NCBI GenBank assembly: GCA_040752415.1
Contig: JBFMGU010000203.1
Location: forward strand, 1 to 19,313
Source of the DNA: Myxococcota bacterium
GTDB taxonomy: Bacteria; Myxococcota; JACRCW01
Direction of reading: 5' to 3'
Length of the DNA stretch: 19,313 bases
In this document: positions 2,985 through 19,313 of the stretch, piece by piece
Layout of the letters: every line of letters begins with the position of its first letter
Position numbering within the stretch: position 1 is the stretch's first letter
Position numbers and translations under genes: made by a program
Notes under the pieces: model-generated
What the model saw: the letters and a program-made list of their open reading frames with translations, nothing else
What the model was told of the DNA's origin: nothing
Databases searched by the model: none

Positions 2985-4193
2985 ATGGGATTCGTTCGTG
3001 CGCGTGGCGCGGAAGGTCTGCTGCTGCTGGTGCTGGCGTGCCGGCCGGACGGTGCATCCCCGCCGGATGCGGGCGCCACGGCGGTGGACGCGGGAAGCTC
3101 GTCGGCCGGGCTGTCTTCGCAGGCGGTGCTGGCGGCGCATGACGCGCTGCAGGGCGGCAGCACCGACGTGGCGCTCTCGTTGGACGGGCGGGTGCGCCTG
3201 CGGCGGGTGATGCAGGGGGCGCAGGTGGTGCAGGCGGAGATCCTCGTCGACGGGGAACGGGTCATGCAACGCACCCACGACGCCACCGGCTGGACCGCGG
3301 TGTGGGACCAGGACCGCGACGGCGTCCCGGAGCGTCGCATGACCATGACGCGGGACGCGGAGACCGGCGGCCGCACCACGGTGGTGGAGGAGGTGCCCGG
3401 ACCGCACGGCCTGCGTCGTCGGGAGACCACCCGGCGCCTCGACGAGTCGCTGGAGATTGTCTGGGAGTGGATGGAGGCCGACGGCAGCTTCTCCACGGTG
3501 CTGGATTGGACCACCACGCTGTGGCAGCCCGCCGGCATTGAGGGCCCGTTGGGCGGGGGCGAGTGCACCGCGGAACAGGCCGAACAGATCCACGCGGCCA
3601 CCGAGGAGGCCCTGCAGCGTGGCATGTCGTGCTTCGAGGAGCTGGGAATGTATGACGTGGCCCAGTTCTTTGCGTCCCAGGCCGCCGAGCGCGGGATCAC
3701 GCTGGCGTGTGAGGACCTGGAGGCCAACTACGGGCTGGCGGACGGTTGCGCGCTCAACGTGTCCGCCGACCCCGCGGAGGACCAGCGGATCAGCATCTCC
3801 GTCGACGACCGCGCCTTCACCGACCCGCGCTGCGGCGACCTGTTGCCCCTGCTCCTCCATGAGCTGCTGCATTCCTCGCTGGGCGGGCACAACCCCTTTG
3901 CGCACTCCATCGAGCGGGAACACCGCTCCGAGTACGACCGCGTCAACGCGTGCACCAGGATCTGCACCGACCGCTCCAGCGCCACCAGGTGTGACTGCGC
4001 GCAGTGCCTGGGCACCGACCCGTGCGACCCGCGTTGCGCCGAGTACAACCCATGTGGGCGGGGCGGGATCTTCTACTGCACGTGCGTTGACCAGAACTAC
4101 ACGTTCCCCACCCTGGAGGCGTGCGAGTCCGGATGTCCCGCCACCATCGGCTGCTTTGCCCGACGGTGCGTGAAGTTCCCCAGCTGCCAGTGA
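2985..4193 (+). CDS. Putative lipoprotein with zincin-like HExxH motif and Cys-rich C-terminus, 402 aa
   Basis: Lipobox-like [17 protein letters not shown] (DxDxDG Ca-loop-like), LLLHELLHS (HELLH at 3858-3872) and 15 Cys in the last 81 residues. Confidence 0.8.
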
Positions 4194-4889: not shown

Positions 4890-5027
4890 GCGCCGAGCAT
4901 GACGGCAGGCGACCCGGGCCGCCAGGGTAGGCGCCGCTCACACCCGCGGTTTTCTGGAGCTTCCTCGAGCGCAGGCTAGAGTGTGAGGACCGTGACGTCG
5001 TCACGACGTGCCTGGAGGGGTTCTTCC

Positions 5028-7967
5028 ATGATGCGCCTGTTCCGTGTGGTGTTGCCTGCGCTGGTCCTGCTGCCCATTGCCTGCACCACGGGGCAGCCGC
5101 CCGGGGAGACCCCCGAGGAGAGCACCAGCACGTCCTCCGCGTCTTCTTCGTCCTCGAGCTCCTCTTCATCCAGCAGCGGTTCCGTCTCCAGCACCTCCTC
5201 CAGCTCGTCCTCGTCGGGTGACAGCTCCACCGCCAGCGGGACCAGCTCCTCGTCGTCCAGCTCCTCGGGCGGAAGCACCTCCACGTCCGGGAGCACGTCC
5301 TCCTCCGGCGGCCTGGACGCGGGTGTCGCTGACGGCGGGACCACCGACGCGGGCGGCACCGACGCGGGACCGGTGTGTGGCGACGGCGCGGTGCAGTCCC
5401 CGGAGGAATGCGACGACAGCGGCACCGTCGACAACGACGGCTGCTCCAGCACCTGCACCAACGAGGTCACGCCGGCGTGCGGCGACGGGATCCTCCAGGC
5501 CGGGGAGACGTGCGACGACGGCGTGCAGAACAGCGACAGCGTTGCCGACGCGTGCCGCACCACGTGCATCCCCGCCGGTTGCGGCGACGGCGTGACGGAT
5601 ACCGGAGAGAGCTGCGACGACGGCGCACAGAACAGCGACACCACCGCCGACGCCTGCCGCACGTCATGCCAGCCGCCCTCCTGCGGCGACTCCGTCACGG
5701 ACACCGGTGAGACCTGCGACGACGGCCCGGCCAACAGCGACACCGCCGCGGACGCCTGCCGCACCACCTGCGCCTCCGCCACCTGCGGCGACGGCGTGAC
5801 GGACACCGGAGAGGGCTGCGACGACGGCGCGCAGAACAGCGACACCACCGCGGATGCCTGCCGCACCCGCTGCGCGCTGCCGGGCTGTGGCGACGGAGTC
5901 CAGGACAACGGCGAGCAGTGCGACAACGGCGCGCAGAACAGCGACCTCACCGCCGACGCGTGCCGCACCACCTGCGTGAACCCCAGCTGTGGCGATGGGA
6001 TGGTGGACACCGGCGAAGCGTGCGACGACGGCAACAATGCCGACTCCGACGGCTGTTCCAGCACGTGTGCCAACGAGGTCACGCCCGCCTGTGGCGACGG
6101 GATCCTGCAAAGCGGCGAGCAGTGCGACAACGGCGCGCAGAACAGCGACACGGTGGCCGACGCGTGCCGGACCACCTGCGTGCGCGCCGCGTGTGGTGAC
6201 TCGGTCATCGACACCAATGAGACCTGCGACGACGGCGCACAGAACAGCGACACCACGGTCGACGCGTGCCGCACCACCTGCCTGCCGGCAGCCTGCGGCG
6301 ACGGCGTGATCGACAGCAATGAGACTTGCGACGACGGCGCGCAGAACAGCGACACCACGCCTGACGCGTGTCGTACCACCTGTGTGCCGGCGGGTTGCGG
6401 CGACGGTGTCACGGACACCAATGAGACCTGCGACAACGCCGGGCTCAACAGCGACACCACGCCCGACGCCTGCCGCACCAGCTGCACGCTTGCCGCCTGC
6501 GGCGACTCGGTGGTGGACAGCGCGGAGCAGTGCGACGACGGCGGGCAGAACAACGACATCGCGCAGGGGGCCTGTCGCAGCACTTGCCTGAGCGCGCACT
6601 GCGGTGACGGCGTGGTCGACTACACGCTGGGAGAGCGGTGCGAGGACGGCAACACCGCCGACGGCGACGGGTGCAGCTCGGCCTGCCAGGTGGAAGCGGC
6701 GCCCACCTGTGGCGACGGCACGCTGGACCTGGCCAATGACGAGCAGTGCGACGACAGCAACAACGTCGCCGGCGACGGCTGCGACCCGAGTTGCCAGTTC
6801 GAGCTGGTGGGCCAGACGTGCGGCGACGGCACGGTGGACGCCAACGAGATTTGTGACGACAACAACACCTCCAACGGCGACAGCTGCAACCCCACCTGCA
6901 ACTTCACCAACACCACCGCGCTGTTTGCCGGCACCCCCGGACAGCCGGGCTCGGTGGACGGCGTGGTGAACACCGCCACGTTCCAGGGCACGTTCTACAT
7001 GGCGGCGGACGACCACTTCCTGTGGGTGACCCAGCCCGGCAACCTCAACGGCCTCATCCGCCGGGTCACGGTCAACGACCCCACGTCGTCGACGGTGGCC
7101 GGCGAGGTGGTGACCGTGGCGGGCGGAGGAAACTCGCTGCCGCCGTGCCTGGGTACCGCGTGTCGCCTGGTGGGCGTGGATTCCATTGCCACCGACGGAA
7201 CGCGGGTCTGGTTCTCCGCCAACGGCCGCATCATGGAGATGAGCGCCACCGCGCCCTTCCAGGTCAACGCCGTGGCCGGCGACGGAACCTGCGGCAATAT
7301 CGACGCCACCGCGCCCGGAACCGCGCTGGCCGCGCGCTTTGATGACCTGCGCGGGCTCACCTGGTTCAACGGCCTGCTGTATTTCGTGGATGCCCGCGCC
7401 GCCACGCTGCGCGCCTTCGACCCGAACGCGGGCACCGTCGTCACGCTGGCGGGCACGGCGTATCCCGGAGGCCGCGGAGCGTGCGGCAGCGGCGGTAACG
7501 GCAATCCCGTGGCGACGGATGACTATGGCACCGCGGCGGTGATGGACAGCCCGCGCTTCATCACCTCCGACAACTCCGGGATGCTCTACATCGCGGACAA
7601 CCTTGGCTACACCATCCGCTCCTACAATACGGTGACGACGTACCTGGGCACCTTCGTGGGCCAGAAGAACACGCCGGGGTACCTGGACAGCACCGGCACC
7701 AGCGCGCTCCTGGACCGCCCGCGCGACCTCACCTCCGACGGGACGAGCATCTACTTCACCGAGCAGGAGGCGTACACCATCCGCCAGGCGGTGATTGCCG
7801 ACGCCACGGTGACGACGATGATCGGCGCCCCCAACCAGAGCGGCTACGTGGAGGGCACGGGGAGCGCCGCGCGGATGGGCCAACCCTTTGACGTGGTCTA
7901 CCACTTCCCCAGCCGGCGCCTGTTCTTCGCCGACAGCGGCAACCACGTCATCCGCGAGATCCGCTGA
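5028..7967 (+). CDS. Large surface lipoprotein: Ser-rich stalk, 15 Myxococcus Cys-rich repeats (DUF4215-like), C-terminal NHL-like beta-propeller, about 979 aa
   Basis: RBS ggagggg before ATG 5028, lipobox LPIA-C, Ser/Thr/Gly run and CGDG-x-E-x-CDDG-x-C-x3-C repeats. C-terminal blades include FDDLRGLTW..LYFVD, MDSPRFITSD..LYIAD, LDRPRDLTSDG..IYFTE and FFADSGNHVIREI. Confidence 0.92.
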   Translation: MMRLFRVVLPALVLLPIACTTGQPPGETPEESTSTSSASSSSSSSSSSSSGSVSSTSSSSSSSGDSSTASGTSSSSSSSSGGSTSTSGSTSSSGGLDAGVADGGTTDAGGTDAGPVCGDGAVQSPEECDDSGTVDNDGCSSTCTNEVTPACGDGILQAGETCDDGVQNSDSVADACRTTCIPAGCGDGVTDTGESCDDGAQNSDTTADACRTSCQPPSCGDSVTDTGETCDDGPANSDTAADACRTTCASATCGDGVTDTGEGCDDGAQNSDTTADACRTRCALPGCGDGVQDNGEQCDNGAQNSDLTADACRTTCVNPSCGDGMVDTGEACDDGNNADSDGCSSTCANEVTPACGDGILQSGEQCDNGAQNSDTVADACRTTCVRAACGDSVIDTNETCDDGAQNSDTTVDACRTTCLPAACGDGVIDSNETCDDGAQNSDTTPDACRTTCVPAGCGDGVTDTNETCDNAGLNSDTTPDACRTSCTLAACGDSVVDSAEQCDDGGQNNDIAQGACRSTCLSAHCGDGVVDYTLGERCEDGNTADGDGCSSACQVEAAPTCGDGTLDLANDEQCDDSNNVAGDGCDPSCQFELVGQTCGDGTVDANEICDDNNTSNGDSCNPTCNFTNTTALFAGTPGQPGSVDGVVNTATFQGTFYMAADDHFLWVTQPGNLNGLIRRVTVNDPTSSTVAGEVVTVAGGGNSLPPCLGTACRLVGVDSIATDGTRVWFSANGRIMEMSATAPFQVNAVAGDGTCGNIDATAPGTALAARFDDLRGLTWFNGLLYFVDARAATLRAFDPNAGTVVTLAGTAYPGGRGACGSGGNGNPVATDDYGTAAVMDSPRFITSDNSGMLYIADNLGYTIRSYNTVTTYLGTFVGQKNTPGYLDSTGTSALLDRPRDLTSDGTSIYFTEQEAYTIRQAVIADATVTTMIGAPNQSGYVEGTGSAARMGQPFDVVYHFPSRRLFFADSGNHVIREIR
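5373..6905 (+). repeat. Intragenic array of 15 Cys-rich units (mostly 102 nt) with a 612-nt higher-order period
   Basis: Units counted from the translation. DGCSSTC(T/A)NEVTPACGDGILQ occurs at 5436 and 6048, 612 nt (6 x 102) apart. Confidence 0.9.
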
Positions 7968-9053
7968 TCAATACTGCTGCTTCCCGCCGCCACCGCTCCC
8001 GCCGGTGAGCTGTTCCTGCGCCTCCTCGCTCGCCTCCGGCGTGTCGGGCTCCTCCGCTCCTCCCACCGGAACCGGCGCGGGCTTCGGCTCGGCGCGCGGG
8101 GGCGTGTCGACGTCAGGTGTGGCCGACGCGCGCCGCTTGAGGAAGATCCCGGTGGGCCAGCCCGCGCCGCTGAGACACCCGCAACAGGTGCAGCCAAACA
8201 GGTGCAACCACGAGACCACCAGCGCCGTGCCCGCGCCCTCGCCGCTGCCGCCGCCCGCAATGGCCAACGCCAACGTGAGCCAACCCAGGCCCAGGCAGCA
8301 GTTGAGCACCGCGCACGCCGTGAGCAGCCCGGACACCACCATCACCGGCTGCCACGGATTGAACCCACCTCCACCACCCGAGGTCGACGCCGCCGCGGGA
8401 GCGGCCTTGGTGGGAGCGGGCGCGGTGACGGCGGGCTTCTGCGCGGGGGGCGGGCGCGAGGGCGCGGGGGACGTGGTGGTTGCCGAGGTGGCGGGTGGCG
8501 GTGTTTCCGTGGCGCCGTTGCTGCGTGGGCCCAGCTCCTTGCGCGCGGCCTCACCAAACCGCACCGCCAGCCGCTGCACGCCCTCCAGCAGCGCCTGCTC
8601 GTCGGCGGAAGCCACCACTTCCTGGTCGGAGAGGCGGAGCTGCGCGCGCTGCACGTCCATCAGCTTCACGGTGATGACAATGCTGTTGCCCACGCGCGCA
8701 AAGCGGCCAATCACCAGGTAGCGCACGCCCAGCGCCCCGCCGATCTCCGTGAGGCAGCTGGTGCTGTCGCAGCCCATGAGGGACTTCTGCTGCTCGAACG
8801 TGACGAGCGAGGCGATGTCCTGCTGCCCGATCACGTTCCGCTCCGAGGCCCGCGCGAACCGGATCTGGAAGGTGTCCATCAACGCCGCCGTCAGCTCGGT
8901 ATCCACCTTGCGGGTGTCGAACGGCATGATGGCAATCTCCGCCTTCTTCTCCTCCTGCGCGTCCGCGCGCGCCGCGACCGGCAGCAGCGTCGAGACCACC
9001 GCCAACACCCAGCACACGCGAGTCCAGGGCAACGAGCTCATGGTTGCACCCAT
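7968..9053 (-). CDS. Exported protein with TolB-N/CsgG-like alpha/beta domain, Pro/Ala linker and Cys-rich C-terminal membrane helices, 361 aa
   Basis: Signal peptide ending ARA-D, then IAIMPFD and MGCDSTSCLTEIGGALGVRYLVIGRFARVG..ITVKLMDV, a PPPATSATTTSPAP linker and hydrophobic segments near the C-terminus. An alternative start is 9041. Confidence 0.85.
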   Translation of the reverse strand: MGATMSSLPWTRVCWVLAVVSTLLPVAARADAQEEKKAEIAIMPFDTRKVDTELTAALMDTFQIRFARASERNVIGQQDIASLVTFEQQKSLMGCDSTSCLTEIGGALGVRYLVIGRFARVGNSIVITVKLMDVQRAQLRLSDQEVVASADEQALLEGVQRLAVRFGEAARKELGPRSNGATETPPPATSATTTSPAPSRPPPAQKPAVTAPAPTKAAPAAASTSGGGGGFNPWQPVMVVSGLLTACAVLNCCLGLGWLTLALAIAGGGSGEGAGTALVVSWLHLFGCTCCGCLSGAGWPTGIFLKRRASATPDVDTPPRAEPKPAPVPVGGAEEPDTPEASEEAQEQLTGGSGGGGKQQY

Positions 9054-9235: not shown

Positions 9236-9400
9236 CGGCCCTGAAGCACCCATCATCCCGTCGCCGCCACCGCAACCATGCCGGTGGCCTGCCGCCACCC
9301 CGCCCGTGGTGGTGGCAGCCATGACCATCGCGCGGCTCACGTGGCGGCGAACGCCGTTGCGCCGGTCCGCGGCATCCGTCCCGACCCTCGGGGGAGTTCC

Positions 9401-12400
9401 ATGCGCATTGCAAGCACGCTCGTCCTGGCGTTCTCGGTCCTCTTGCCCGCGGTTGCCGCGGCCCAGACCCAGCCGCCCACCTTCAGCGTCCCGCGAGGCT
9501 TCTATTCGTCCTCCTTTACGGTCACCCTAAGCAGCCCCACCTCCGGCGCCACCATCCGCTACACCACCAACGGCACCACGCCCACCTCGGGCCGGGGCAC
9601 GCTGTACAGCGGTCCCATCACCATCAGCACCACCACGCCGCTGCGCGCGGTGGCCTACCGTTCCAGCACGGACGTCTCGCCGGTGGTGACGCAGACGTAC
9701 ATCTTCATTGGCGCAGTGCTGCGGCAGCCCGGCCGTCCCAGCGGCTACCCCAGCTACTTCGCCGACGACGACGGCGACGGCCCCTATCCCGCGGACTACG
9801 AGATGGACCCGGAGGTGGTGGGCGACAGCGACTACGCCACTGCGCTGCCGGACTCCCTGCGTGACATCCCCACCGTGTCACTGGTGACGGACGTCGCCAA
9901 CCTCTTCGACGCGGATACCGGCATCTATTACAACCCGCTGGAGAAGGGCGACGCGTGGGAGCGGCCCGTCTCCGTCGAGTGGATCAACCCGGACAACACC
10001 ACCGCCTTCGCCCTCACGGCGGGAGCGCGCATCCACGGCCAGTCCAGCCGGCGTCCCCGCAGCACGCCCAAGAAGAGCTTCCGCCTCTACTTCCGCTCCA
10101 GCCTGGGCGCCGCGAAGCTGGACTATCCCGTCTTCGCGGACATGGACCCGGTCTTCGCCGCCGACGGTGCGGTGCGCCAGTTTGACCGCATCCTGCTCAA
10201 GGGCGGGTCCAACCGGATCTGGACGTCGTGGAAGAGCTACAACCGCGGCATTGCGGACTACGTGAATGACGAGTTCCCGCGCATCGCGTTCCGGGAGATG
10301 GGGCACCTGGCGCCGCACGGGGCGCGCTACGTGCACGTCTATCTCAACGGCCTGTACTGGGGCCTCTATGACATCACCGAGCGCATCGACGACCGTTACC
10401 TGGTGGCCTACCAGGGCGGGACCCTGACGGACTACGACCTGGTCTTCCCCGACGAGGACGCCGAGCCCGCCTACACGCCGGTGGCGGAGGTCGGCACCAT
10501 TGACGCGTGGAACAGCCTGCACAGCCTGCTTTCCAGCACCCCGGTCTCCGACAGCACCTACGCCACGGCGCAACAGCGCGTGGACGTGGTGGACCTGGCG
10601 GACTACGTGATCCTCACCCACTACGTGGGCAACAACGACTGGCCCGAGCACAACTGGTACGCCTACCGCAAGCGGAGCGGCACGGACACGCGCTTCAAGT
10701 TCATCCCCTGGGACAACGACTCCGGGATGAAGCGTCTTGACGACGACATCACCACCGACGACGCGGCAGGCACGCCCGCGCGGCTCTTCCTGCGCCTGAT
10801 GACCAACGCGCAGTTCCGCCAGCTGGTGAATGACCGCGTTGCGCTGCACACCACGGGCAACGGGGTGCTCACCCCCGCACGCTGCGCCGCGCGCTACGGT
10901 GCGCTCACGGACGTCGTCGACCAGGCGGTGATCGCCGAGTCGGCGCGCTGGGGTGACTACTCCCGCGACGTGTACCACTGGGAAGACGCGGAGCCGGACT
11001 CGCTGCCCGCGTACCTGTACACGCGCAATGACTTCTGGGTGCCAACCCGCGACGACAAGCTGAACAACTACTGCCCCAACCGCACCGCGGTCTTCGTCGA
11101 CCAGTACATCGCCAACGGGTGGTACCGTCCCGGCCTGCTGGCGCCCACGTACTCGCAGAACGGCGGGGCCATCCCCAGCGGCTTCCGGCTCACCATCACC
11201 AACCCCAACCGCGGCACGGGCGACATCTTCTACACCACCAACGGCGTCGACCCGCGCAGCGCTACCGGCAGCGTGGTTCCTGGCGCGCTCAACGGCGCGG
11301 ACAGCACGGAAGTGGTCATGGACCAGGTCACCACCGTCCTCTCCCGTGTGAAGGACGGCGACCGCTGGAGCCCGCCCAACCAGGCCACGTTCTACCCGCC
11401 CCAGGACTTCTCCAGGCTGGTGATCAACGAGCTGCACTACCATCCGCCGGCGGACGGGACCGTCGACGGGGACCTGCGGGAGTTCCTGGAGCTGTACAAC
11501 GGCGGGTCCGTGGCGCTGCGCCTGGACAACGCGCGGTTCACCCGCGGCATCGACTTCACCTTTCCGCTGGGAACCAGCATTCCGGCGGGCGGCTACCTGG
11601 TGCTGGCCAGCAACGCCGCCCAGTTCCGCACCGACCACGGGTTGGCGCCCTTTGGCCAGTATGTCGGCAACCTCTCCAACTCCGGCGAGGCCGTGGAGCT
11701 GGTGGACGCGCTGGGGAACGTCATTGACCTCGTGACCTACAGCGACATCGATCCCTGGCCCGCCAGCCCCGACGGCCTGGGTCCGTCCCTGGAGCTGGTC
11801 AATCACACGCTGGACAACGCGCTGGGCTGGAACTGGCACGCCTCCGACGTGGAGGACGGCACGCCCGGTGCGCCCAACTCCGCCTACTCCGGCCCCTCCA
11901 GCAGCAGCTCGTCGTCGGGAGGCGCGGGAGTGAGCAGCTCCTCGTCGTCTTCATCGTCGTCAAGCAGTTCCTCCTCCAGCTCCTCCTCGTCGAGCAGTTC
12001 CTCTTCCTCCAGCAGTTCCTCGTCCTCGAGCAGCTCCTCCTCCAGCGGAGGCAGCGGGGCGTTCCAGGAACAGGGCGGGCTGGTGATCTTCGAGGCGGAG
12101 CACTTCACGACGAAGACCAGCCGAAGCGGGCACGAATGGACTCCGAAGACCAGCCCCACCGGTTATACCGGCGAGGCATCCATGTACGCCGGCCCCAATG
12201 ACGGCACGAACATCGACTCCTCGATCCCCAGCACCAGCCCGCAGATGGACTACCGCGTGAACCTCACACAGGGCGGCTCCTACGTGGCCTGGCTGCGCGT
12301 GCGAGCTTCTGCCACCTCGGCGGACTCCATCCACGCGGGGCTCAACGGGAGCGTGTCCGCCACGGTGCACTACAAGAAGGTCGACACCTGGGTGTGGCGC

Positions 12401-13360
12401 CCCGCCACCGTGCAGGTGCCCGCCGCGGGCATCCACGTCTTCAACCTGTGGATGCGGGAGGATGGTGCCTACGTGGACCGCGTCATCCTCACCAGGGACA
12501 GCGCCTACACCCCCAGCGGCACCGGTCCCGCCGAGAGCCCGCGCGACGGCGGGAGCACCACGCCCACCAACACCTCGCCAACGGTCAACCTCACCGCGCC
12601 CACCAACGGACAAACCGTCACCGAGGGCGACCTGGTCACGCTCACCGCCACCGCGACGGATACCGACGGCACCGTGACCCAGGTGGCCTTCTACGGTGGC
12701 GGCGTGACGCCCCTCTGCGTGGATGGCAGCGCGCCGTACACGTGCTCCTTCACGCCGGACGTGGGTGCCTACCTGCTCACCGCGGTCGCCACCGACGACG
12801 ACAACGCCACCACCACCAGCGCCGCGGTGGCCATCACGGTGGAACCGGCTTCCTCCGGTGGCAGCTCCGGCGCGTTCGTGGAGCAGAATGGGTTGGTGGT
12901 GATGGAGGCTGAGCACTACCACCAGACCACCACGGTGAACGGACATTCCTGGGTGCCGCGCACGAAGTCCGGCGACGTGGCCGAAGGCAACATGCGCTCC
13001 TACCCCAATGACGGGGTGCGGGTGGAGTCCAGCATCACCACCACCAGCCCGGTGCTCACCTACCGCGTGAACTTCACGCGCACCGGCACGTACCGCTTCT
13101 ACGTGCGCGGCTGGGGCAACAGCAGCTCCGACGACTCCGTCTACGTCGGCGTCGACGGTGCGGTGAATGGGACCATCCAGCTCGCCACGTACGACACGTG
13201 GGTCTGGCGCTACGTCCCGGTCACCATCTCCTCGCCCGGCGAGCACACCATCCACGTCTGGATGCGCCAGGACGGCATGTACATGGACCGGGTGGTGCTC
13301 CAGCAGAGCAGCACCGCGCCCAGCGGTTCGGGCCCCGTGGAAAGCCCGCGCGCGCCTTGA
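9401..13360 (+). CDS. Secreted multidomain CotH-family kinase (Fn3/chitobiase-like, CotH, Fn3-like, lamin-tail domain, poly-Ser, CBM-like, Ig-like, CBM-like), about 1319 aa
   Basis: RBS ggggag before ATG 9401 and signal peptide ending AAA-Q. PTFSVPRGFY..IRYTTNGTTP. CotH motifs KKSFRLYF, VHVYLNGLYWGLY, NNDWPEHNWY and FIPWDND. LTD LVINELHYHP..EFLELYN..LSNSGEAVEL. Two F(Q/V)EQxGLVxxEAEH domains (GH115 C-terminal-like) flank an NTSPTVNLTAP Ig-like domain. Confidence 0.93.
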   Translation: MRIASTLVLAFSVLLPAVAAAQTQPPTFSVPRGFYSSSFTVTLSSPTSGATIRYTTNGTTPTSGRGTLYSGPITISTTTPLRAVAYRSSTDVSPVVTQTYIFIGAVLRQPGRPSGYPSYFADDDGDGPYPADYEMDPEVVGDSDYATALPDSLRDIPTVSLVTDVANLFDADTGIYYNPLEKGDAWERPVSVEWINPDNTTAFALTAGARIHGQSSRRPRSTPKKSFRLYFRSSLGAAKLDYPVFADMDPVFAADGAVRQFDRILLKGGSNRIWTSWKSYNRGIADYVNDEFPRIAFREMGHLAPHGARYVHVYLNGLYWGLYDITERIDDRYLVAYQGGTLTDYDLVFPDEDAEPAYTPVAEVGTIDAWNSLHSLLSSTPVSDSTYATAQQRVDVVDLADYVILTHYVGNNDWPEHNWYAYRKRSGTDTRFKFIPWDNDSGMKRLDDDITTDDAAGTPARLFLRLMTNAQFRQLVNDRVALHTTGNGVLTPARCAARYGALTDVVDQAVIAESARWGDYSRDVYHWEDAEPDSLPAYLYTRNDFWVPTRDDKLNNYCPNRTAVFVDQYIANGWYRPGLLAPTYSQNGGAIPSGFRLTITNPNRGTGDIFYTTNGVDPRSATGSVVPGALNGADSTEVVMDQVTTVLSRVKDGDRWSPPNQATFYPPQDFSRLVINELHYHPPADGTVDGDLREFLELYNGGSVALRLDNARFTRGIDFTFPLGTSIPAGGYLVLASNAAQFRTDHGLAPFGQYVGNLSNSGEAVELVDALGNVIDLVTYSDIDPWPASPDGLGPSLELVNHTLDNALGWNWHASDVEDGTPGAPNSAYSGPSSSSSSSGGAGVSSSSSSSSSSSSSSSSSSSSSSSSSSSSSSSSSSSSSSGGSGAFQEQGGLVIFEAEHFTTKTSRSGHEWTPKTSPTGYTGEASMYAGPNDGTNIDSSIPSTSPQMDYRVNLTQGGSYVAWLRVRASATSADSIHAGLNGSVSATVHYKKVDTWVWRPATVQVPAAGIHVFNLWMREDGAYVDRVILTRDSAYTPSGTGPAESPRDGGSTTPTNTSPTVNLTAPTNGQTVTEGDLVTLTATATDTDGTVTQVAFYGGGVTPLCVDGSAPYTCSFTPDVGAYLLTAVATDDDNATTTSAAVAITVEPASSGGSSGAFVEQNGLVVMEAEHYHQTTTVNGHSWVPRTKSGDVAEGNMRSYPNDGVRVESSITTTSPVLTYRVNFTRTGTYRFYVRGWGNSSSDDSVYVGVDGAVNGTIQLATYDTWVWRYVPVTISSPGEHTIHVWMRQDGMYMDRVVLQQSSTAPSGSGPVESPRAP
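11933..12046 (+). repeat. Run of 38 consecutive serine codons (polyserine linker)
   Basis: 114 nt using all six Ser codons, between the LTD and the first CBM-like domain. Confidence 0.9.
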
Positions 13361-13387
13361 GGTCTCCGCGGTCTTCCGCTTCGCAGG
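13319..13387 (+). repeat. 69-bp direct repeat, copy 1 (end of CotH gene, stop codon and 27 nt downstream)
   Basis: cccagcggttcgggccccgtggaaagcccgcgcgcgccttgaggtctccgcggtcttccgcttcgcagg is identical to 15336-15404. Confidence 0.97.
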
Positions 13388-13815
13388 TCTTGTTTGCTCC
13401 GTCGCCCAACCGGAGTTCTCCTCGGACCAGATGACCTCCTCACGGGGCGCCATCTAACAAGAAAGCACCGGCGGGTGAGAGACAGGCTGTCCGGCCTCAG
13501 CGCGCGCTGGGCCCCCGCACCTCGCCATCCTTCCGCGAGCGAGCCAGCGCGTAACCCACGTGACCTGGGCATTGTCATCCGCAAGCCGGCGCGCAGGCTC
13601 ACGGCGGACGAAAGTGCGCACCCAGCGAATGACGCATCGCCGTGGACACACACGCGTCTCAAGCGCGGATGGCTTGCTACACGCCGCGCGCGCCCGGGTG
13701 AGGAAGGGTGCAGCGCGTCGGCGCGCGGGTTGCCGAGTGACAGCCGGCGTGTTGTGCTTCGGGTTCATGGACAACGCCACACGCTGAAGAGTGCCTGCCG
13801 CTGCGGAGGGGAATC

Positions 13816-15303
13816 GTGTTTCACACATGTCATGCCCTGACCCTCTGCGCGCTCTTGTCGTCCGCCAGTAGTTCGGCTGAGACGTTGGAGGCACCACAAG
13901 ACGTCGCGAAGCTCCGCTATGAAGAGCGGCTGGGGCTCGCGCGGGCTGCGTTGTCTGAGGGGCTTCCGCTCGACGCCTTGTTCCACGCCGAAGCAGCACT
14001 GAACTGGGACCACCGGGGGCGGGAGGCGCTGCAAATCCTGGAGGCCCTTTACAACGAGCTCGACCGGGATGCCGACGCCCAGCGGGTTCATCGCGAATTG
14101 GCACGGACGACGCCTCCGCCTCGTCCCATCGACCCCACCGTGCAGGCTCCGGGTCCCGCTCCGCGTCCAGGCCTCTTTCTGTTCGTCCAGGCCAGTGCCC
14201 TGAATGTTCGAGAGCGCGCCAGTCAGACGGGGCGTTCGATCGCACTGCTTCGCGTCGGGGACCGAGTCAGAGTGCTGGAGATCCACGGCGAATTCGCGAA
14301 GGTCTCATGGAACGCCGCGGCCCACCGCACGCTGGTGATCAACATGATGTCGGAGGAAGCTGCTCTTCCGCCGCTGCCATCGGTACCGGTGCAGGAATCA
14401 TCCGGGTACGTGGCGTGGGCATATCTGTCTGCGGAGGAGCCGAACGCTCACGCGCTGCTTTCGCACGGGATCGATCTTGAAACGGCGGGGCGATATCCGG
14501 AGGCCACCGATGCCTTGGAACGGGCAGCCTGGTTGTTGCCTTCGCACGGTGGCGTTCTCCGTCGTCTGGCTCGCTGTGCCACGTTGGCGGAGCGCTACAG
14601 GGTAGCGGTGTCGGCGGGGCTGCGCCTCACGCAGGTCCAGGACGTCCCGGCAGCGTCAAGCGTCCTCCTTGGATGTCGCGGGAGTCCGCTGGACGCGGAG
14701 GTCTTTGCATCCACCAGCGAGGTACCTGAGGGGGCCACGGCTGCGTGCGTGACGGAACCCGACATTCCGCGGTCCTGCGAGCCGTGTGGAATCCCCAATT
14801 CCCCGAGCGAGGAGTTCGAGCAGGACATCGAGATGCGGCGCGAGGCGGCCCACCGTGAGCAGGAGGAATATGACGAGTCCTCCAGAAGGGTCGAAGAAGC
14901 GCGGGATGCTATCAAGACTCGGTTTCCGAACGGCGCCTGGGTTCACATCCGTGTTCCATCGGATGAGAAGCGTGGGACCTTCACCGCCTATTTCTACTCC
15001 ATGCGCATGAAGCTCCGGCATTCATGTGGCTCGTACTCCCTGAACGGTCAAACCGGAGAGGTGACGCTGTCTCCGCCACTGCGAATCCGCGAGAGGACTA
15101 GCGTGGACATCTGGGTGCGTGTTCCGGACGAATCCGACCAGCTCTACGGGTTGGTGGCGACACATGACGGGGTTCTGGCTCGGTCCTTCGTCGTCAACAT
15201 GGTTCAGAAGATGCACGTGGATACCTTTGAGGGCGCCATCGCCTCCCTGCCGAGGGGCTCCGCCCACACCGTGAGGAAGGCGTGCGGGTGTTGCGGCTGC
15301 TAG
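13816..15303 (+). CDS. Exported TPR- and SH3b-containing hypothetical protein ending in CGCCGC, 495 aa
   Basis: GTG start with ggagggg upstream and a signal-like N-terminus. SH3b-like VQASALNVRERASQTGRSIALLRVGDRVRVLEIHGEFAKV...GYVAWAYLS. TPR-like HGIDLETAGRYPEATDALERAAWLLP. Confidence 0.8.
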   Translation: MFHTCHALTLCALLSSASSSAETLEAPQDVAKLRYEERLGLARAALSEGLPLDALFHAEAALNWDHRGREALQILEALYNELDRDADAQRVHRELARTTPPPRPIDPTVQAPGPAPRPGLFLFVQASALNVRERASQTGRSIALLRVGDRVRVLEIHGEFAKVSWNAAAHRTLVINMMSEEAALPPLPSVPVQESSGYVAWAYLSAEEPNAHALLSHGIDLETAGRYPEATDALERAAWLLPSHGGVLRRLARCATLAERYRVAVSAGLRLTQVQDVPAASSVLLGCRGSPLDAEVFASTSEVPEGATAACVTEPDIPRSCEPCGIPNSPSEEFEQDIEMRREAAHREQEEYDESSRRVEEARDAIKTRFPNGAWVHIRVPSDEKRGTFTAYFYSMRMKLRHSCGSYSLNGQTGEVTLSPPLRIRERTSVDIWVRVPDESDQLYGLVATHDGVLARSFVVNMVQKMHVDTFEGAIASLPRGSAHTVRKACGCCGC

Positions 15304-15377
15304 ATCGCGTGCTGCTCACCCAGGCCAGCAATCGTCCCAGCGGTTCGGGCCCCGTGGAAAGCCCGCGCGCGCCTTGA
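15303..15377 (+). pseudogene. Orphan C-terminal remnant of a CotH-gene homolog (DRVLLTQASNRPSGSGPVESPRAP*)
   Basis: Aligns without gaps to the last 24 codons of the CotH gene (13286-13360, DRVVLQQSSTAPSGSGPVESPRAP*). The first 33 nt match at 20/33 and the rest is identical. Confidence 0.85.
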
Positions 15378-15404
15378 GGTCTCCGCGGTCTTCCGCTTCG
15401 CAGG
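15336..15404 (+). repeat. 69-bp direct repeat, copy 2
   Basis: Identical to 13319-13387. Confidence 0.97.
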
Positions 15405-15561
15405 AAATGTTGCTCCGCCGTCCGTCCGACGACGACGTGCTCCGTCACCCGTCCTACGGCATGTGGGTCCGCCCCCCCACACGACCGATATCGTCGGAGC
15501 CTGGCCCTACGGTTTGCTGCGTGCGTCACGGCATTGCTTCTGCCGCAAACCGGAGAACCTG

Positions 15562-17262
15562 ATGCGACGCGCGCTTCTCTCCTCCATGGTGCTGTTCTCT
15601 CTCGGCTGCCTCACCCCGACGGAGAGCACGGAGATCGACGACGACCACCCGCTGGACATCACCCTCGGTCGCGACGAGATCAAGACCACCTTCACGCTCA
15701 TTGATGGCTACTACGAGTCCCCGGTGATGGAGGTCCCCGCGGGCGCTTCCCGCGTGGCGGCCATGCTCACCCTCACGGACGTGCCGGTGGACATCGCGCG
15801 CAAGCTGCAGGCGCGCCTGGTGCGCGACGACGGCTCCACGTCCGACTGGGTGCCCATGGATGTGACGTTCAACGAAGAGGAGCTGCGCGTCATCCGCACC
15901 GACCTCGCCGAGGTGGGCTCCCAGGTCCAGCTGCGTGTGCCGGAGGGTGACGTGGACTTCATCCGCCTGCTCACCTGGTCCGCGGTCATTCCGCAGGACG
16001 AGGAGCTGGCGGATGACAGCGCCATCTCGGTGGCCAACAGCGAGCAGGGCCAGGCGCTCAACGGGGACCTGGCGAATGCCGGCGTGCTCGCGCGCTCGGC
16101 GTGGAATGCACGTCCCACCCGTTGCACCTCGAGCGACCGTCCCAAGGAGCGCATGGCCATCCACCACACCGCGGGCGCGCCCACCGCCGGCGGCTCGTAC
16201 GAGGCGGGACTGCGCCAGATCCAGGCGTATCACATGGACGGTCGCGGCTACTGCGACGCGGGCTATCACTTCGCGGTCACGCTCGACGGGCGCGTCTGGG
16301 AGCTGCGTCCGCTGAACTTCCTGGGCGGTCACAGCCGCAGCTACAACAGTGGCAACGCGGGCATTGTGCTGGTGGGTTGTTTTGACAGCAGCGGCGCCTG
16401 CGCCAACGTGTCCGGCCCGCGCACGCCTCCCGACGCCATGGTGCAGGGCGCGGCGCGCGTGGTGGCGGCGCTCAGCAACATGTACGGCATTGCCATCAAC
16501 AGCGACCGCATCAAGGGCCACGGCCAGCAGCCCTACCAGCAGACCGGCTGCCCGGGTGACGGCGGGCGCGCGCGCCTGGAGGACATCCGCGCCGCGGCCC
16601 GCAACGGGACGGCTCCCGCGCCCAGCGATCCTCCTCCGCCCGCCGGCGACGAGTGCGGCCAGGTGCGCGTGAACACCAGCGGCGGCACGCTCAACATCCG
16701 TCCCACGGCTTCCACGGCGAACTCACCGGTGGGCACGCTGGCCGACGGGGCGCGCGTGGAGCGCATCAGCTCGACGGAAGGGCAGTCCGTCAACGGCAAC
16801 CGCACCTGGCACCGCATCCGTCGCAATGACGGCGTGGTGGGCTACGTCTCCGCGGCGTACACGCAGTGCATTGCCACGCCCGCGGCGCAGCCGGCCACCG
16901 CGACCCCGGTGGACTCGCCCACCGGCTGCGCGTTCATGGGCGCCAACGAGGCGCTCACCGCGGGTCAGGCGGTGAACTCCTGCGACGGTCGCTTCACCTT
17001 CGTGCACCAGGCCGACGGCAACGTGGTGCTCTACAAGGCGGGCGTGGCGCGCTGGGCCTCCAACACCAACGGCCGCTCGACGGGCACGTTGATCATGCAG
17101 GCCGACGGCAACCTGGTGCTCTACTCGCCGGGTGGCACGGCGGTGTGGAGCAGCCAGACGCACGGCAACCCCGGCGCCACGCTGGCGGTCCAGGATGACG
17201 GCAACGTGGTGATCTACGCGCCGGGCAACCGCGCCATCTGGGCCACCGGCACCGACGAGTAA
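15562..17262 (+). CDS. Lipoprotein: N-acetylmuramoyl-L-alanine amidase (Amidase_2/PGRP-like), SH3b and bulb-type mannose-binding lectin, about 566 aa
   Basis: RBS ggag before ATG 15562 and lipobox FSLG-C. Amidase motifs RSAWNAR, IHHTAG, IQAYHM..GYCDAGYHF, GGHSRSYN and IKGH..TGCPG (His/His/Cys Zn ligands). SH3b LNIRPTAST..GYVSAAY. Three QxDxNxVxY motifs. Confidence 0.93.
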   Translation: MRRALLSSMVLFSLGCLTPTESTEIDDDHPLDITLGRDEIKTTFTLIDGYYESPVMEVPAGASRVAAMLTLTDVPVDIARKLQARLVRDDGSTSDWVPMDVTFNEEELRVIRTDLAEVGSQVQLRVPEGDVDFIRLLTWSAVIPQDEELADDSAISVANSEQGQALNGDLANAGVLARSAWNARPTRCTSSDRPKERMAIHHTAGAPTAGGSYEAGLRQIQAYHMDGRGYCDAGYHFAVTLDGRVWELRPLNFLGGHSRSYNSGNAGIVLVGCFDSSGACANVSGPRTPPDAMVQGAARVVAALSNMYGIAINSDRIKGHGQQPYQQTGCPGDGGRARLEDIRAAARNGTAPAPSDPPPPAGDECGQVRVNTSGGTLNIRPTASTANSPVGTLADGARVERISSTEGQSVNGNRTWHRIRRNDGVVGYVSAAYTQCIATPAAQPATATPVDSPTGCAFMGANEALTAGQAVNSCDGRFTFVHQADGNVVLYKAGVARWASNTNGRSTGTLIMQADGNLVLYSPGGTAVWSSQTHGNPGATLAVQDDGNVVIYAPGNRAIWATGTDE

Positions 17263-17334
17263 GCGCACCTCGGGAAGCGCGCGAACGAAGAGGTCCGGCG
17301 CTCAGCTCCCCGACGACGACGAGGCGGGAGACCA

Positions 17335-18888
17335 TCAGGGACAGTGGAGCGTCTTGAGATACTCCAGGAGCGCGCGCCGGTCGGCGTCGGGGAGCGTGGT
17401 GCCAAACGCCGGGCCGGAGTGTCCCTGCACAAACCGCGCAGGCACCTTGCGCCATAGGAAGTTGGAGCGCGCTGGCCCCCGGGTGATGGCCCGCGCCAAC
17501 GTCCGCGACGTGTAATAGCCCACGTCGACGGGATCGGTGGTCTCGCCGGGATACTGCATGCGGGAGCGCTGCTCCTGGGGCAGGAGCAACTCCGCCAACG
17601 ACGCCACGCCACCGGTGTGCAGGTACGGTGCGTTGAGGAAGGTGCTGCACAGGGGCAGTGCCGCGTAGCCCGGCTCCTCATCCCAGGCGACGCGCGGGAC
17701 AAAGGCCTCCCTAAGCTTCCCGAATGTCTCCAGGACGTCGCGGCGGGCGGCCTGCGCGCGCTCGGGGTCCGTCCGCACCAGCGACAGGGGCGTGATGGTT
17801 GGCGCATACCCGGTCAGGCGTCCGTCCGCGTCGTGCTGACCGTGACAGCTCGCGCACCGGGCAGCGCCGTGGAACAGCTCTCGCCCTCGTGGCAGCAGCT
17901 CGCGCTCCAGGGGCTCCGCCATGAGGTCCTGCCAGCGCGGTGACGGTGTGCTGAACATGACAAATGCATCCAACGCCTCCGCCGTTGGCGTCGCCTGCCT
18001 CTGCCGCCACTCGTCGACGCGCTCCACGCCCAGGAAGTCCAGCACCGGCCACCGCCCCGGCCACGTGGTGTTGATGCTGCCGTCCCAGAAGAAACGGTTG
18101 CGGAAGCGCAAGGTGTTGAGCGGCGGAATCTTGACGACGCCACAAGGGAACCGGGCCCGGTCCTGCTCGTTGGCCAGCTGTTCGGGGCTGCGCAGGACGC
18201 CGGTGCTGGCGTGCCAGATACGCACCCCGGTGACCACGCCCGGCGCAAGCTGCTCCTCGCAGCCCAGGTTCTGCAGCGCCTCATAGCGCTTCACCTTGGC
18301 ACGCTCCGCACGCAGGGAGTCTTGCGCAGCGCGGTGCTGTCCAGGGACCAGGCGCAACAGCACCTCCGTGAGACGAAGCGCCGAGCGGGTGGCGCGGAAC
18401 ATGTTCTGTTGCTGGTAGAAGCGATTGGCAGTGCCGGCGAGCAGCACTCCGTTCACCTGGGCGGTGTGGCACGCCGCGCAGCTCTGCGAGATCCGTCCCG
18501 GCCCCTGCGGGAATACCAGCCCCAGCGGCAGGCCGCCGTCGGGATTGGGCTGCAAGCCCGTCGGCAGGATGCGGTTGGCCCCGGCAAGCAGGGGACCTAC
18601 CGCGTCCAGCGGCACCAGTGGGTCCAGGTCAACGTGGGGCTGCCAGGGAAGGCCAAAGGGCTCGCCCTCGTGCAGCGTGGAGGCGAACCACGCGCGACGC
18701 CCTTCCTCCACCAGCTCCGCGAGCGACCGCGCGCCCGACGCCACGCTGGGCAGGTCCTCGGCACGAGCGACGGGATGCGGCAGTCGCGGGTCCACCTGAA
18801 GCAGTACGCCACCGGGGCCAACCACCGGGGTGCGCGGGGCCATCGACCACAGCGCCGTCGTCAGAGCGAACAGGAGAATCGGCTTCAC
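17335..18888 (-). CDS. Exported di-heme c-type cytochrome (RoxA-like / cytochrome c peroxidase superfamily)
   Basis: CAACH (18466-18480), CASCH (17842-17856), PYLHTGGVASLAELL and GHSGPAFGTTLPDADRRALLEYLKTL. GTG at 18888, with GAGG upstream, gives a signal-like MKPILLFALTTALWSMA. The track start at 18924 is an alternative. Confidence 0.85.
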   Translation of the reverse strand: MKPILLFALTTALWSMAPRTPVVGPGGVLLQVDPRLPHPVARAEDLPSVASGARSLAELVEEGRRAWFASTLHEGEPFGLPWQPHVDLDPLVPLDAVGPLLAGANRILPTGLQPNPDGGLPLGLVFPQGPGRISQSCAACHTAQVNGVLLAGTANRFYQQQNMFRATRSALRLTEVLLRLVPGQHRAAQDSLRAERAKVKRYEALQNLGCEEQLAPGVVTGVRIWHASTGVLRSPEQLANEQDRARFPCGVVKIPPLNTLRFRNRFFWDGSINTTWPGRWPVLDFLGVERVDEWRQRQATPTAEALDAFVMFSTPSPRWQDLMAEPLERELLPRGRELFHGAARCASCHGQHDADGRLTGYAPTITPLSLVRTDPERAQAARRDVLETFGKLREAFVPRVAWDEEPGYAALPLCSTFLNAPYLHTGGVASLAELLLPQEQRSRMQYPGETTDPVDVGYYTSRTLARAITRGPARSNFLWRKVPARFVQGHSGPAFGTTLPDADRRALLEYLKTLHCP

Positions 18889-19017
18889 GCCGACAGCCTC
18901 GTCGGGACCGTGCGCTGCGGTCAAGACTCGCGGCGTACGGAGCCGCGCACTCCGAGGAGGGTCTTGCCGGCCCAGCCTTGAACTTGAGCTGAGGGGTGTC
19001 AGGACCCGCAGAGCAAT

Positions 19018-19053
19018 CCACGCTGACGGTCCAGGACGATGGCAACGTGGTGA
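19018..19053 (+). pseudogene. Orphan fragment of the last lectin motif of the amidase gene (TLTVQDDGNVV)
   Basis: ccacgctgacggtccaggacgatggcaacgtggtga matches 17177-17212 (ccacgctggcggtccaggatgacggcaacgtggtga) at 33/36. Two of the three differences are synonymous. Confidence 0.8.
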
Positions 19054-19070
19054 CGTGGGTGAGCGCGTCT

Positions 19071-19198
19071 AGCAACGCACGACCCGTTCACGAGGCGGGT
19101 GAGCGGAGCGAGCAACGCACGACCCGTTCACGAAGCGGGTAAGCGGAGGGAACGGCGCACGACCCGTTCACGAAGCGGGTGCGCGAAACGAGCGGCGC
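19071..19198. repeat. Three tandem 40-bp units with an internal palindrome (REP-like), plus partial units
   Basis: Units start at 19071, 19111 and 19151 and share cgcacgacccgttcacga(a/g)gcgggt, with hairpin arms ACCCG...CGGGT. Partial units lie at about 19052-19065 and 19191-19198. Confidence 0.9.
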
Positions 19199-19204
19199 CC
19201 TGGA

Positions 19205-19313
19205 GAGGGTGTCTCAGTTTGATGTGACGTCGTGGCGGGTACCTGCGTATGAGGGGGCATGCCCCGAGTCATCGAGCCGGACCGAACACAGCAGGTGCTC
19301 CTTCCCAGGGCCG
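19205..19313 (+). mobile_element. Probable left end of an IS1182-family insertion sequence
   Basis: Candidate terminal sequence GAGGGTGTCTCAGTTTGA at 19205, followed after 54 nt by a transposase-like N-terminus. The right end is outside the window, so the inverted repeat cannot be confirmed. Confidence 0.55.
19259..19313 (+). CDS. Probable IS1182-family transposase, N-terminal 18 aa (runs off the window)
   Basis: RBS gagggg, then MPRVIEPDRTQQVLLPRA, resembling the M-x-R-...-DRxQxxLLP start of IS1182 transposases. Very short evidence. Confidence 0.55.
   Translation, partial: MPRVIEPDRTQQVLLPRA

Follow-up and report, generated by a model that had tools for sequence, protein, structure and literature searches.

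Two repeat-flanked units on one contig

The window, by which we mean the whole 19,313-bp stretch of DNA analysed here, is a complete contig (C117) of the 11.0-Mb draft genome of a Myxococcota bacterium; the draft comprises 520 contigs with 68.9% GC, an estimated completeness of 96.8% and an estimated contamination of 4.3%. Between positions 13286 and 19053 it carries two consecutive units, each of which places a single gene between a resident gene and an orphan copy of part of that resident gene's 3' region. Pfam and NCBIfam assigned the genes concerned to a CotH-family protein, an SH3b-domain protein, an amidase-SH3-B-lectin protein and, on the minus strand, a di-heme cytochrome; together with alignment of the repeats, these assignments confirmed the gene layout described in the original prediction for this locus. 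The prediction also held that neither unit encodes an integrase or a transposase. This is so for intact genes, none of which was detected in 13286-19053 by a Pfam scan of the open reading frames (ORFs) of the window, but unit 2 does hold a 58-bp fragment of a Y2 transposase gene.

In unit 1, the resident gene (9278-13360, plus strand) encodes an exported CotH-family protein of 1,360 amino acids with Pfam matches to CotH, Fn3_assoc, LTD, Big_7 and, at its C-terminus, two GH115_C-like domains. The 122 bp over the end of this gene (13286-13407, plus strand) align in direct orientation with 15303-15423 (plus strand) at 84% identity and a spacing of 2,017 bp, and this sequence occurs at these two places only in the whole 11-Mb genome. 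The identity is unevenly distributed. An exact core of 69 bp (13319-13387, equal to 15336-15404), which is the longest exact run at the 2,017-bp offset, takes in the final 14 codons of CotH, its TGA stop (13358-13360) and the next 27 nt. The left arm, host-like in the proximal copy (13286-13318), matches at 20 of 33 positions (~61%), and the right arm (13388-13407 in the proximal copy) matches at about 65% over ~35 nt with small gaps. Read in frame, the orphan encodes DRVLLTQASNRPSGSGPVESPRAP up to its stop codon, after which come 47 nt of downstream sequence, versus DRVVLQQSSTAPSGSGPVESPRAP at the end of the resident CotH protein; the final 14 residues are the same in both. Because the in-frame arms differ and the core is exact, the orphan amounts to a diverged homologue of the gene end fused with a tract of identity, as a crossover between diverged alleles gives, which supports the proposal that this remnant stems from another allele. 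The uneven identity would likewise fit recombination between diverged homologues and not even decay after duplication.

Base composition at third codon positions (GC3) was compared with that of 4,214 predicted genes of at least 300 amino acids (mean of 0.897 and standard deviation of 0.034); these reference genes were picked by codon usage, which exaggerates their contrast with the cargo. The CotH gene has a GC3 of 0.93-0.97 in its last windows and is host-typical up to position 13279. Within the repeat, GC3 is 8/11 in the orphan left arm, 11/11 in the resident arm and 10/13 in the core, and these counts, taken from few codons (11 per arm), are only suggestive of a donor origin of the orphan left arm. 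An internal domain repeat of CotH and the sole CotH paralogue in the genome, on C113, were rejected as sources of the orphan, which is no closer to either than to the resident end. No RNA or terminator structure was found in the repeats (z-scores of +0.33, +1.43 and -0.30).

The insert of unit 1, a spacer followed by one gene (13408-15302, plus strand; 1,895 bp), is of foreign composition, its GC content of 0.650 placing it among the lowest 4-5% of equal-length segments of the genome. A degenerate fragment of a hydrolase gene lies in the spacer (13510-13615, plus strand) and is 73% identical over 104 nt to C496:5697-5800, within the gene C496:5315-6091, with an in-frame match of 18 amino acids; we take both to belong to the fumarylacetoacetate hydrolase family, a name given from a motif and not from a family scan. 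Because the spacer carries this fragment, the import of unit 1 looks like a piece of another chromosome rather than a tailored cassette.

Cargo gene 1 (13816-15303, plus strand) encodes a secreted SH3b-domain protein of 495 amino acids, as judged by a Pfam SH3_3 match, full-length homologues and codon statistics. The protein has a signal-peptide-like start and ends in CGCCGC directly before the stop codon, and the GC3 of the gene is 0.74 overall and 0.63-0.82 across windows, with neighbours at about 0.90. The family was matched in 19 of 401 sampled genomes of the phylum, this genome counted. The best homologues, 28-31% identical over nearly the full length, are in Myxococcota, one of them being a paralogue on C39 of this genome, and four of the five that were inspected end in C-x-C-C-G-C, like the cargo. 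Since the homologues share its C-terminal motif, cargo gene 1 is complete to its native stop. A deletion cutting into cargo gene 1 was rejected as the source of the orphan, given that the cargo keeps the native C-terminus of its family and that the orphan starts within a few bases of the stop. A word-based homologue search with the SH3b protein returned only itself, a metagenome scan gave no relative, a protein-level search of a plasmid collection gave no match, and no CotH-like gene was found within 1.5 kb of the distant SH3b homologues.

The SH3b family itself comprises Myxococcota proteins of ~470-500 amino acids with a conserved terminal cysteine cluster (ending CGCCGC, CICCGC or PCCGC), in which Pfam and NCBIfam recognise SH3_3 only; members lie at loci L047-L050 and at G000:C39:20910-22358. 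At L049 (G001:C143), in a genome of the same family as the one studied here, a homologue (3301-3573; 31% over 94 amino acids) of the window gene 7968-9053 adjoins the SH3b homologue, so that the two genes stand side by side there, whereas in the window they flank CotH.

In unit 2, the resident gene (15559-17262, plus strand, within an ORF open from 15463) encodes a lipoprotein-type protein with amidase_2, SH3_3 and B-lectin domains by Pfam and NCBIfam. A 36-bp sequence in its third lectin repeat, which ends 48 nt ahead of the stop codon (17177-17212, plus strand), recurs as an orphan lectin-repeat copy at a spacing of 1,841 bp (19018-19053, plus strand), identical at 33 of 36 positions. No second match arose in any of 200 shuffles of the window, the orphan is the sole significant match in the genome (E about 6e-6), and no second copy of the lectin domain was found in the genome. 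The flanks of the two copies are unrelated, matching at chance level (6/30 and 8/30). In the lectin frame one difference falls at a first and two at third codon positions. The codon-type divergence that had been claimed for both remnants is therefore clear in unit 1, where the arms encode DRVVLQQSSTA versus DRVLLTQASNR, and in unit 2 comes down to these three substitutions.

A fragment of a Y2_Tnp (IS91-family) transposase gene (17270-17327, plus strand; 58 bp) lies just behind the lectin stop, within the 72 bp that separate the convergent lectin and cytochrome genes. Its identity to C78:1258-1315 and C78:4772-4829 is 83-85%, and 10 of 10 residues agree in frame; the two C78 genes concerned match Pfam Y2_Tnp. 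Fragments of Y2 transposase genes occur at about 20 places in the genome, and a genome search found none in unit 1. Cargo gene 2 (17335-18924, minus strand; GC3 0.85) encodes a di-heme cytochrome c (peroxidase/RoxA-like), recognised by two CxxCH motifs and by Pfam and NCBIfam, with paralogues on C487 and C149. Directly after the lectin orphan come a tandem array of 40-bp units (19052-19198) and the end of a multicopy insertion sequence (IS)-like element (19200-19313, plus strand), at which the contig breaks.

This IS-like end is identical at the ends of eight other contigs (C38, C440, C310, C115, C177, C17, C297 and C339) and is preceded by between one and at least seven tandem ~40-bp units in five of those eight, or at six of nine ends when the window is counted; neither the interior nor the other end of the element is in the assembly. 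The reading frame from 19258 may be the N-terminus of an IS5/IS1182-type transposase, which it resembles. The consensus of the ~40-bp unit is near CACGAAGCGGGTGAGCGGAAGCAGCGGCGCC, and the unit is either a preferred target of the IS or part of the element.

A DNA search of 40 related genomes, including one of the same family, found no synteny with the locus. When a metagenome scan was carried out with the amidase-lectin protein, six loci were obtained, the best of which (L040) is 68% identical at the amino acid level and ends in IYAPGNRAVFATGTAGR before its stop codon, resembling the resident lectin tail. The swapping of C-termini that had been suggested has left no sign, in that the unit 1 orphan encodes the same protein end as the resident gene and the lectin tail matches that of the L040 relative. 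At another metagenome locus (L041, 11081-11824), an amidase-lectin relative of 42% identity has two tandem B-lectin domains versus one.

Gene-end copies across the genome

A self-comparison of the genome gave 207 direct-repeat pairs 200-10,000 bp apart, 95 of which were left after pairs within one predicted gene had been dropped; in about 12 of these 95, one copy lies over a stop codon and the other in non-genic DNA. Gene calls for this and the other genome-wide counts were made with a crude codon-usage caller that misses atypical genes, cargo gene 1 among them, so the label "non-genic" is approximate. For a polarity test, 17,690 segments of 200 nt from the 3' ends, 5' ends and middles of ~5,900 genes of at least 600 nt were searched against the genome. 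We counted non-genic copies on the same contig and strand, 300-10,000 bp away and with at least 15 coding nt, and counted inverted copies separately. Copies of 3' ends lay downstream, the side predicted for a single crossover, in 27 cases, upstream in one and inverted in none. Copies of 5' ends lay upstream, again the predicted side, in 10 cases, downstream in three and inverted in one, and the numbers for mid-gene segments were four downstream, three upstream and one inverted. Both window units are counted within the 27. Selection that removes events inside genes would account for 3' orphans lying downstream and 5' orphans upstream. The scan for further gene-end repeats to which the original prediction had pointed thus yielded many, with the side and orientation of a single crossover (27:1) and with one circle-type joint among them.

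The stop codon lies inside the repeat in 17 of the 27, and several repeats end 0-2 nt from the stop codon or 2 nt short of it (two on C279 and others on C51, C135, C477, C481 and C495). Interiors tend to low GC, 10 of the 27 falling in the lowest 5% and 18 in the lowest quarter. In many cases the translated orphan keeps the resident frame through the stop, in one of them with in-frame indels. Repeat lengths across the genome run from 29 to ~340 bp, and no sequence is common to the repeats of different islands. The resident genes are diverse, including those of a permease, a chemoreceptor, an HAD hydrolase and a matrixin, and the earlier proposal of a preference for surface-protein genes does not hold. 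Among the cargoes are an MmeI-type restriction enzyme with a helicase, a single subtilase of 1,326 amino acids and a pair of molybdopterin oxidoreductase genes. When 55 ORFs in and around nine islands were scanned, none matched a recombinase or transposase family (E <= 1e-4); the nine PF00589 matches in the genome, representing about eight tyrosine recombinase genes, are all on other contigs than the islands.

One of these loci retains a composite joint. At C51:16313-23545 (locus L026), a 6-kb island with a GC content of 0.607 comes after the 3' end of an HAD hydrolase gene (16313-16385), and beyond the island a duplicate of the convergent neighbour's 3' end (22255-22422, 81% identity) is fused to a copy of the HAD end (22419-22491, 93% identity). 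The two copies share GGGG at the fusion (22419-22422), and after a further 0.9 kb comes the end of the convergent neighbour gene itself. To judge from its order of parts, this is the joint that a circularised donor fragment spanning two genes would leave after one crossover, and among the circle-type joints found in this genome it is the clearest. Neither a double crossover nor a one-sided illegitimate join gives rise to this arrangement. Simple tandem duplication would produce it, but the interiors should then be alike, and they differ.

A second island, at C53:12232-20054 (locus L027), measures 7.6 kb with a GC content of 0.60 and encodes an MmeI-family restriction-modification enzyme and a DEAD-box helicase without an integrase. 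On its two sides are the copies of a 132-bp direct repeat (95% identity), which begins 18 nt ahead of the stop codon in an fn3-domain gene.

Proposed single-crossover insertion and competing origins

We interpret both units as probable scars of Campbell-type insertion-duplication, in which host recombination would have made a single crossover, and we put the probability of this reading at roughly 0.55. From the repeats and their surroundings we infer a circle, a crossover and a donor, and the succession of events, as follows. A circular or circularised DNA from a relative would carry short homology to the 3' end of a resident gene, and one reciprocal crossover by host homologous recombination would integrate it ("pop-in"). 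The product would read, in order, the intact resident gene, the imported DNA, the orphan gene end and the original downstream DNA. For unit 1 the circle would have measured ~2 kb and consisted of the final ~100 bp of a diverged gene of the CotH family, the spacer with the dead hydrolase fragment and the complete SH3b gene; its own joint would lie at 15302/15303, and the 69-bp core would represent the crossover or a conversion tract. Unit 2 would have the same topology in degraded form, with its joint at 19017/19018 and 36 bp of the orphan left beside a later insertion of the repeat array and IS. For this to hold, a later event must have removed the rest of that orphan, which the adjoining array and IS make plausible. 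An IS91-family rolling-circle element may have made the unit 2 circle, by analogy with what has been proposed for ISCR1. The genome encodes Ku and a ComEC-type channel, which as a matter of plausibility only makes uptake and end-joining at least possible. We regard unit 1 as a good example and unit 2 as a weaker, degraded one.

Several points weigh against this interpretation. In unit 1, a left arm of ~61% identity beside a perfect 69-bp core needs a conversion tract or a locally conserved stretch, the position of the joint exactly at the stop codon of cargo gene 1 is a coincidence that the model leaves unexplained, and the comparison of arm GC3 involves 11 codons each. In unit 2, the final 48 nt and the stop codon expected from insertion-duplication are missing from the orphan, a search for this tail elsewhere in the genome gave nothing above noise, and the interior is compositionally ordinary (GC 0.698, 68th percentile). 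The neighbours of the amidase-lectin relative at L040 differ from those in the window on both sides. The crude gene calls weaken the 27:1 ratio and the other counts. Finally, Y2 fragments occur inside at least four repeat-flanked units (on C279, C497 and C368 and in unit 2, with C15 and C3 as further cases), so a transposase could take part and "recombinase-free" may be too strong a description.

Among the other explanations, homology-facilitated illegitimate recombination (HFIR), or replacement through a neighbouring paralogue, would need no circle: a linear donor would be anchored in CotH, with an illegitimate join in the gene end or in a tandem CotH paralogue, and the orphan would be a remnant of the recipient. 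Naturally transformable bacteria and E. coli conjugation provide documented cases of HFIR (PMC3240628). The ComEC-type channel of this genome suits such a process, which likewise predicts direct 3' orphans downstream and homology ending at the gene end. However, the host codon usage of CotH up to the repeat would confine the anchor to the same ~100 bp. HFIR also predicts the opposite arm composition from that found, in which the orphan left arm has the lower, cargo-like GC3, although this is a weak test. The affinities of the orphan speak against a paralogue as well, since neither the internal CotH domain repeat nor the C113 paralogue is closer to it than the resident end is, and HFIR does not produce the fused two-gene joint on C51. 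We consider this origin unlikely.

The units could also be decayed or trans-mobilised site-specific islets, with the repeats as attL and attR and the integrase lost or acting from elsewhere. Elements that restore their target gene on insertion include phage 21 and e14 in icd and ICESt1 in fda, and a block of identity with partially homologous flanks over a gene 3' end is the classic att layout of such elements; the approximately eight tyrosine recombinase genes of this genome could act on islets in trans. Against this, none of the 55 ORFs in the nine islands is a recombinase gene and none of the recombinase genes lies on those contigs. The repeats are unrelated from island to island, and repeat 1 occurs only twice in the genome, so that dozens of site specificities would be needed. 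Repeat lengths vary as given above, and the unit 1 orphan has gene homology upstream of the core for which an att site has no need. Such islets appear improbable as the origin of the units.

For unit 2 in particular, the 36-bp lectin piece might be a rearrangement fragment, an IS91-family element having brought or rearranged the cytochrome gene and a later IS with its array having done the rest. The position of the Y2_Tnp fragment just behind the lectin stop, the abutment of the orphan on the 40-bp array and the IS end, the distribution of Y2 fragments over ~20 places, several of them in repeat-flanked units, and the normal GC content of the interior would all agree with an IS by-product. Yet IS91-type transposition makes no target duplication (PMC3575428), so that a further step, either driven by homology or duplicative, is needed to place a direct copy of the neighbouring gene 1.8 kb away. 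The order of repeat, transposase remnant, cargo and repeat is that of homologous rescue of a rolling-circle product, which would make this a variant of single-crossover insertion and not a true alternative. As a separate origin we find it rather doubtful.

That the units are artefacts of a metagenome-assembled genome is very improbable. The draft is in 520 contigs with some estimated contamination, and exact 127-bp direct repeats, 227-424 bp apart, at C107:17848-18398 and C479:7877-8230 resemble k-mer artefacts. An overlap of exactly 127 nt is the commonest between contig ends (46 cases), from which the assembly k-mer is taken to be 127, the very length of the C107 and C479 repeats, which are probably assembly loops and not biology. 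This k-mer exceeds the identical stretches of the window repeats (69 bp and 36 bp), so single k-mers with unique flanks span each junction. Arms from a diverged homologue are not something that an assembler invents, and misjoins would not give a 27:1 bias in side and orientation.

A decayed tandem CotH paralogue is made less likely by the sharp borders and perfect core of repeat 1. A diversity-generating retroelement was rejected because the 13 arm mismatches involve all four bases and no reverse transcriptase family was found among the nine window ORFs scanned. Target-site duplication by a transposon was rejected too, the repeats measuring 122 and 36 bp here and 29 to ~340 bp across the genome, with copies that differ; that the repeats are an insertion footprint of another kind, as originally proposed, is upheld.

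Known systems and further observations

The arrangement resembles Campbell-type insertion-duplication as practised with suicide plasmids, in which the direct repeats are the shared homology and one complete gene and one orphan result, the orphan having the side and orientation that are predicted. The repeats would likewise be hybrid, no element-encoded enzyme is needed, and the unit can be lost through its repeats. Unlike in the laboratory, the homology here is short (36-122 bp) and diverged, the DNA would be natural and foreign, the circle is deduced, and there would be dozens of events in one wild genome. The mechanism itself is known and is not the new capture system that had been proposed; the part worth keeping is the frequency and strict polarity of the scars in one wild genome, together with the preserved joint on C51.

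In the C-terminal displacement model for rhs genes, an episomal circle recombines with the resident gene, the old end is shunted downstream and falls silent, genes are added in between, and arrays grow by repetition, as set out by Jackson et al. 2009 (PMC2935791). In that system the homology is the conserved core upstream of the variable toxin tip, the C-terminus is exchanged and the immunity gene travels along. In the window units, by contrast, it is the gene end itself that supplies the homology, the encoded protein end stays the same and the repeats of the two units are unrelated, and Pfam and NCBIfam scans found no toxin or immunity family in them. The likeness to orphan arrays of polymorphic toxin loci that had been drawn earlier therefore extends to the topology and stops short of the encoded ends and the cargo.

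For ISCR1, Toleman et al. (2006) reportedly put forward a model of rescue by homologous recombination. In class 1 integrons linked to ISCR1, an IS91-family element and captured genes lie between duplicated copies of the 3'-conserved segment (PMC3575428). Unit 2 shows a like order, namely conserved segment, IS91-family trace, captured gene and partial duplicate, with the Y2 remnant beside the first repeat copy. It differs in that only 58 bp of a transposase gene are present and the repeat is 36 bp of a lectin gene and not a dedicated platform, and unit 1 is without such a remnant. Neither oriIS nor terIS was identified in unit 2, although no search was directed at these ends.

Small recombinase-less islands with direct repeats, including the microcin H47 island, are on record (PMC3191183 and PMC5426353). 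The window units share with cis-mobilizable elements (CIMEs) and integrase-less islets their small cargo, flanking direct repeats, lack of a recombinase of their own and location of one repeat in a gene 3' end. CIMEs, however, derive from integrase-borne elements and share att cores, whereas each unit here has a different repeat, and no integrase-bearing element related to the units was found in the genome.

Bacterial gene gain is commonly attributed to integrases, to transposases or to double crossovers within flanking core genes. The present locus and some 40 similar scars of the same genome suggest a fourth route, a single crossover through very short gene-end homology, by which single genes would be added, the resident gene would stay unbroken and a repeat would be left for later loss or transfer. 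Should this route be general, many orphan gene-end fragments would be datable records of transfer, island finders based on integrases would miss such units, and the scars could show directly how little homology suffices for host recombination in nature. A far-reaching version, which we advance tentatively and think rather less than even odds, is that integrase-free pop-in of end-joined fragments from relatives, through 30-300 bp of gene-end homology, is a major and reversible route for accessory genes in this Myxococcota lineage. The units would then in effect be mobile cassettes run by host recombination, with IS91-type elements as one source of circles, and the direct repeats would let each product pop out as a circle and move on.

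Other repeats were noted besides these scars. A palindromic repeat of ~300 bp, present at C476:13610-13917 and more than 100 other places with copies that match on both strands, is probably an element resembling a miniature inverted-repeat transposable element (MITE). The first ~330 nt of C177 and C17, adjoining the IS end, contain another small element, bounded by long terminal inverted repeats (CCCTGGAGTGCGG...CCGCACTCCAG) and inserted at the same CCCTGGAG site. Upstream of CotH in the window, a gene of 994 amino acids (4983-7967) contains at least eight tandem 102-bp coding repeats (5376-6593) corresponding to cysteine-rich DUF4215 units.

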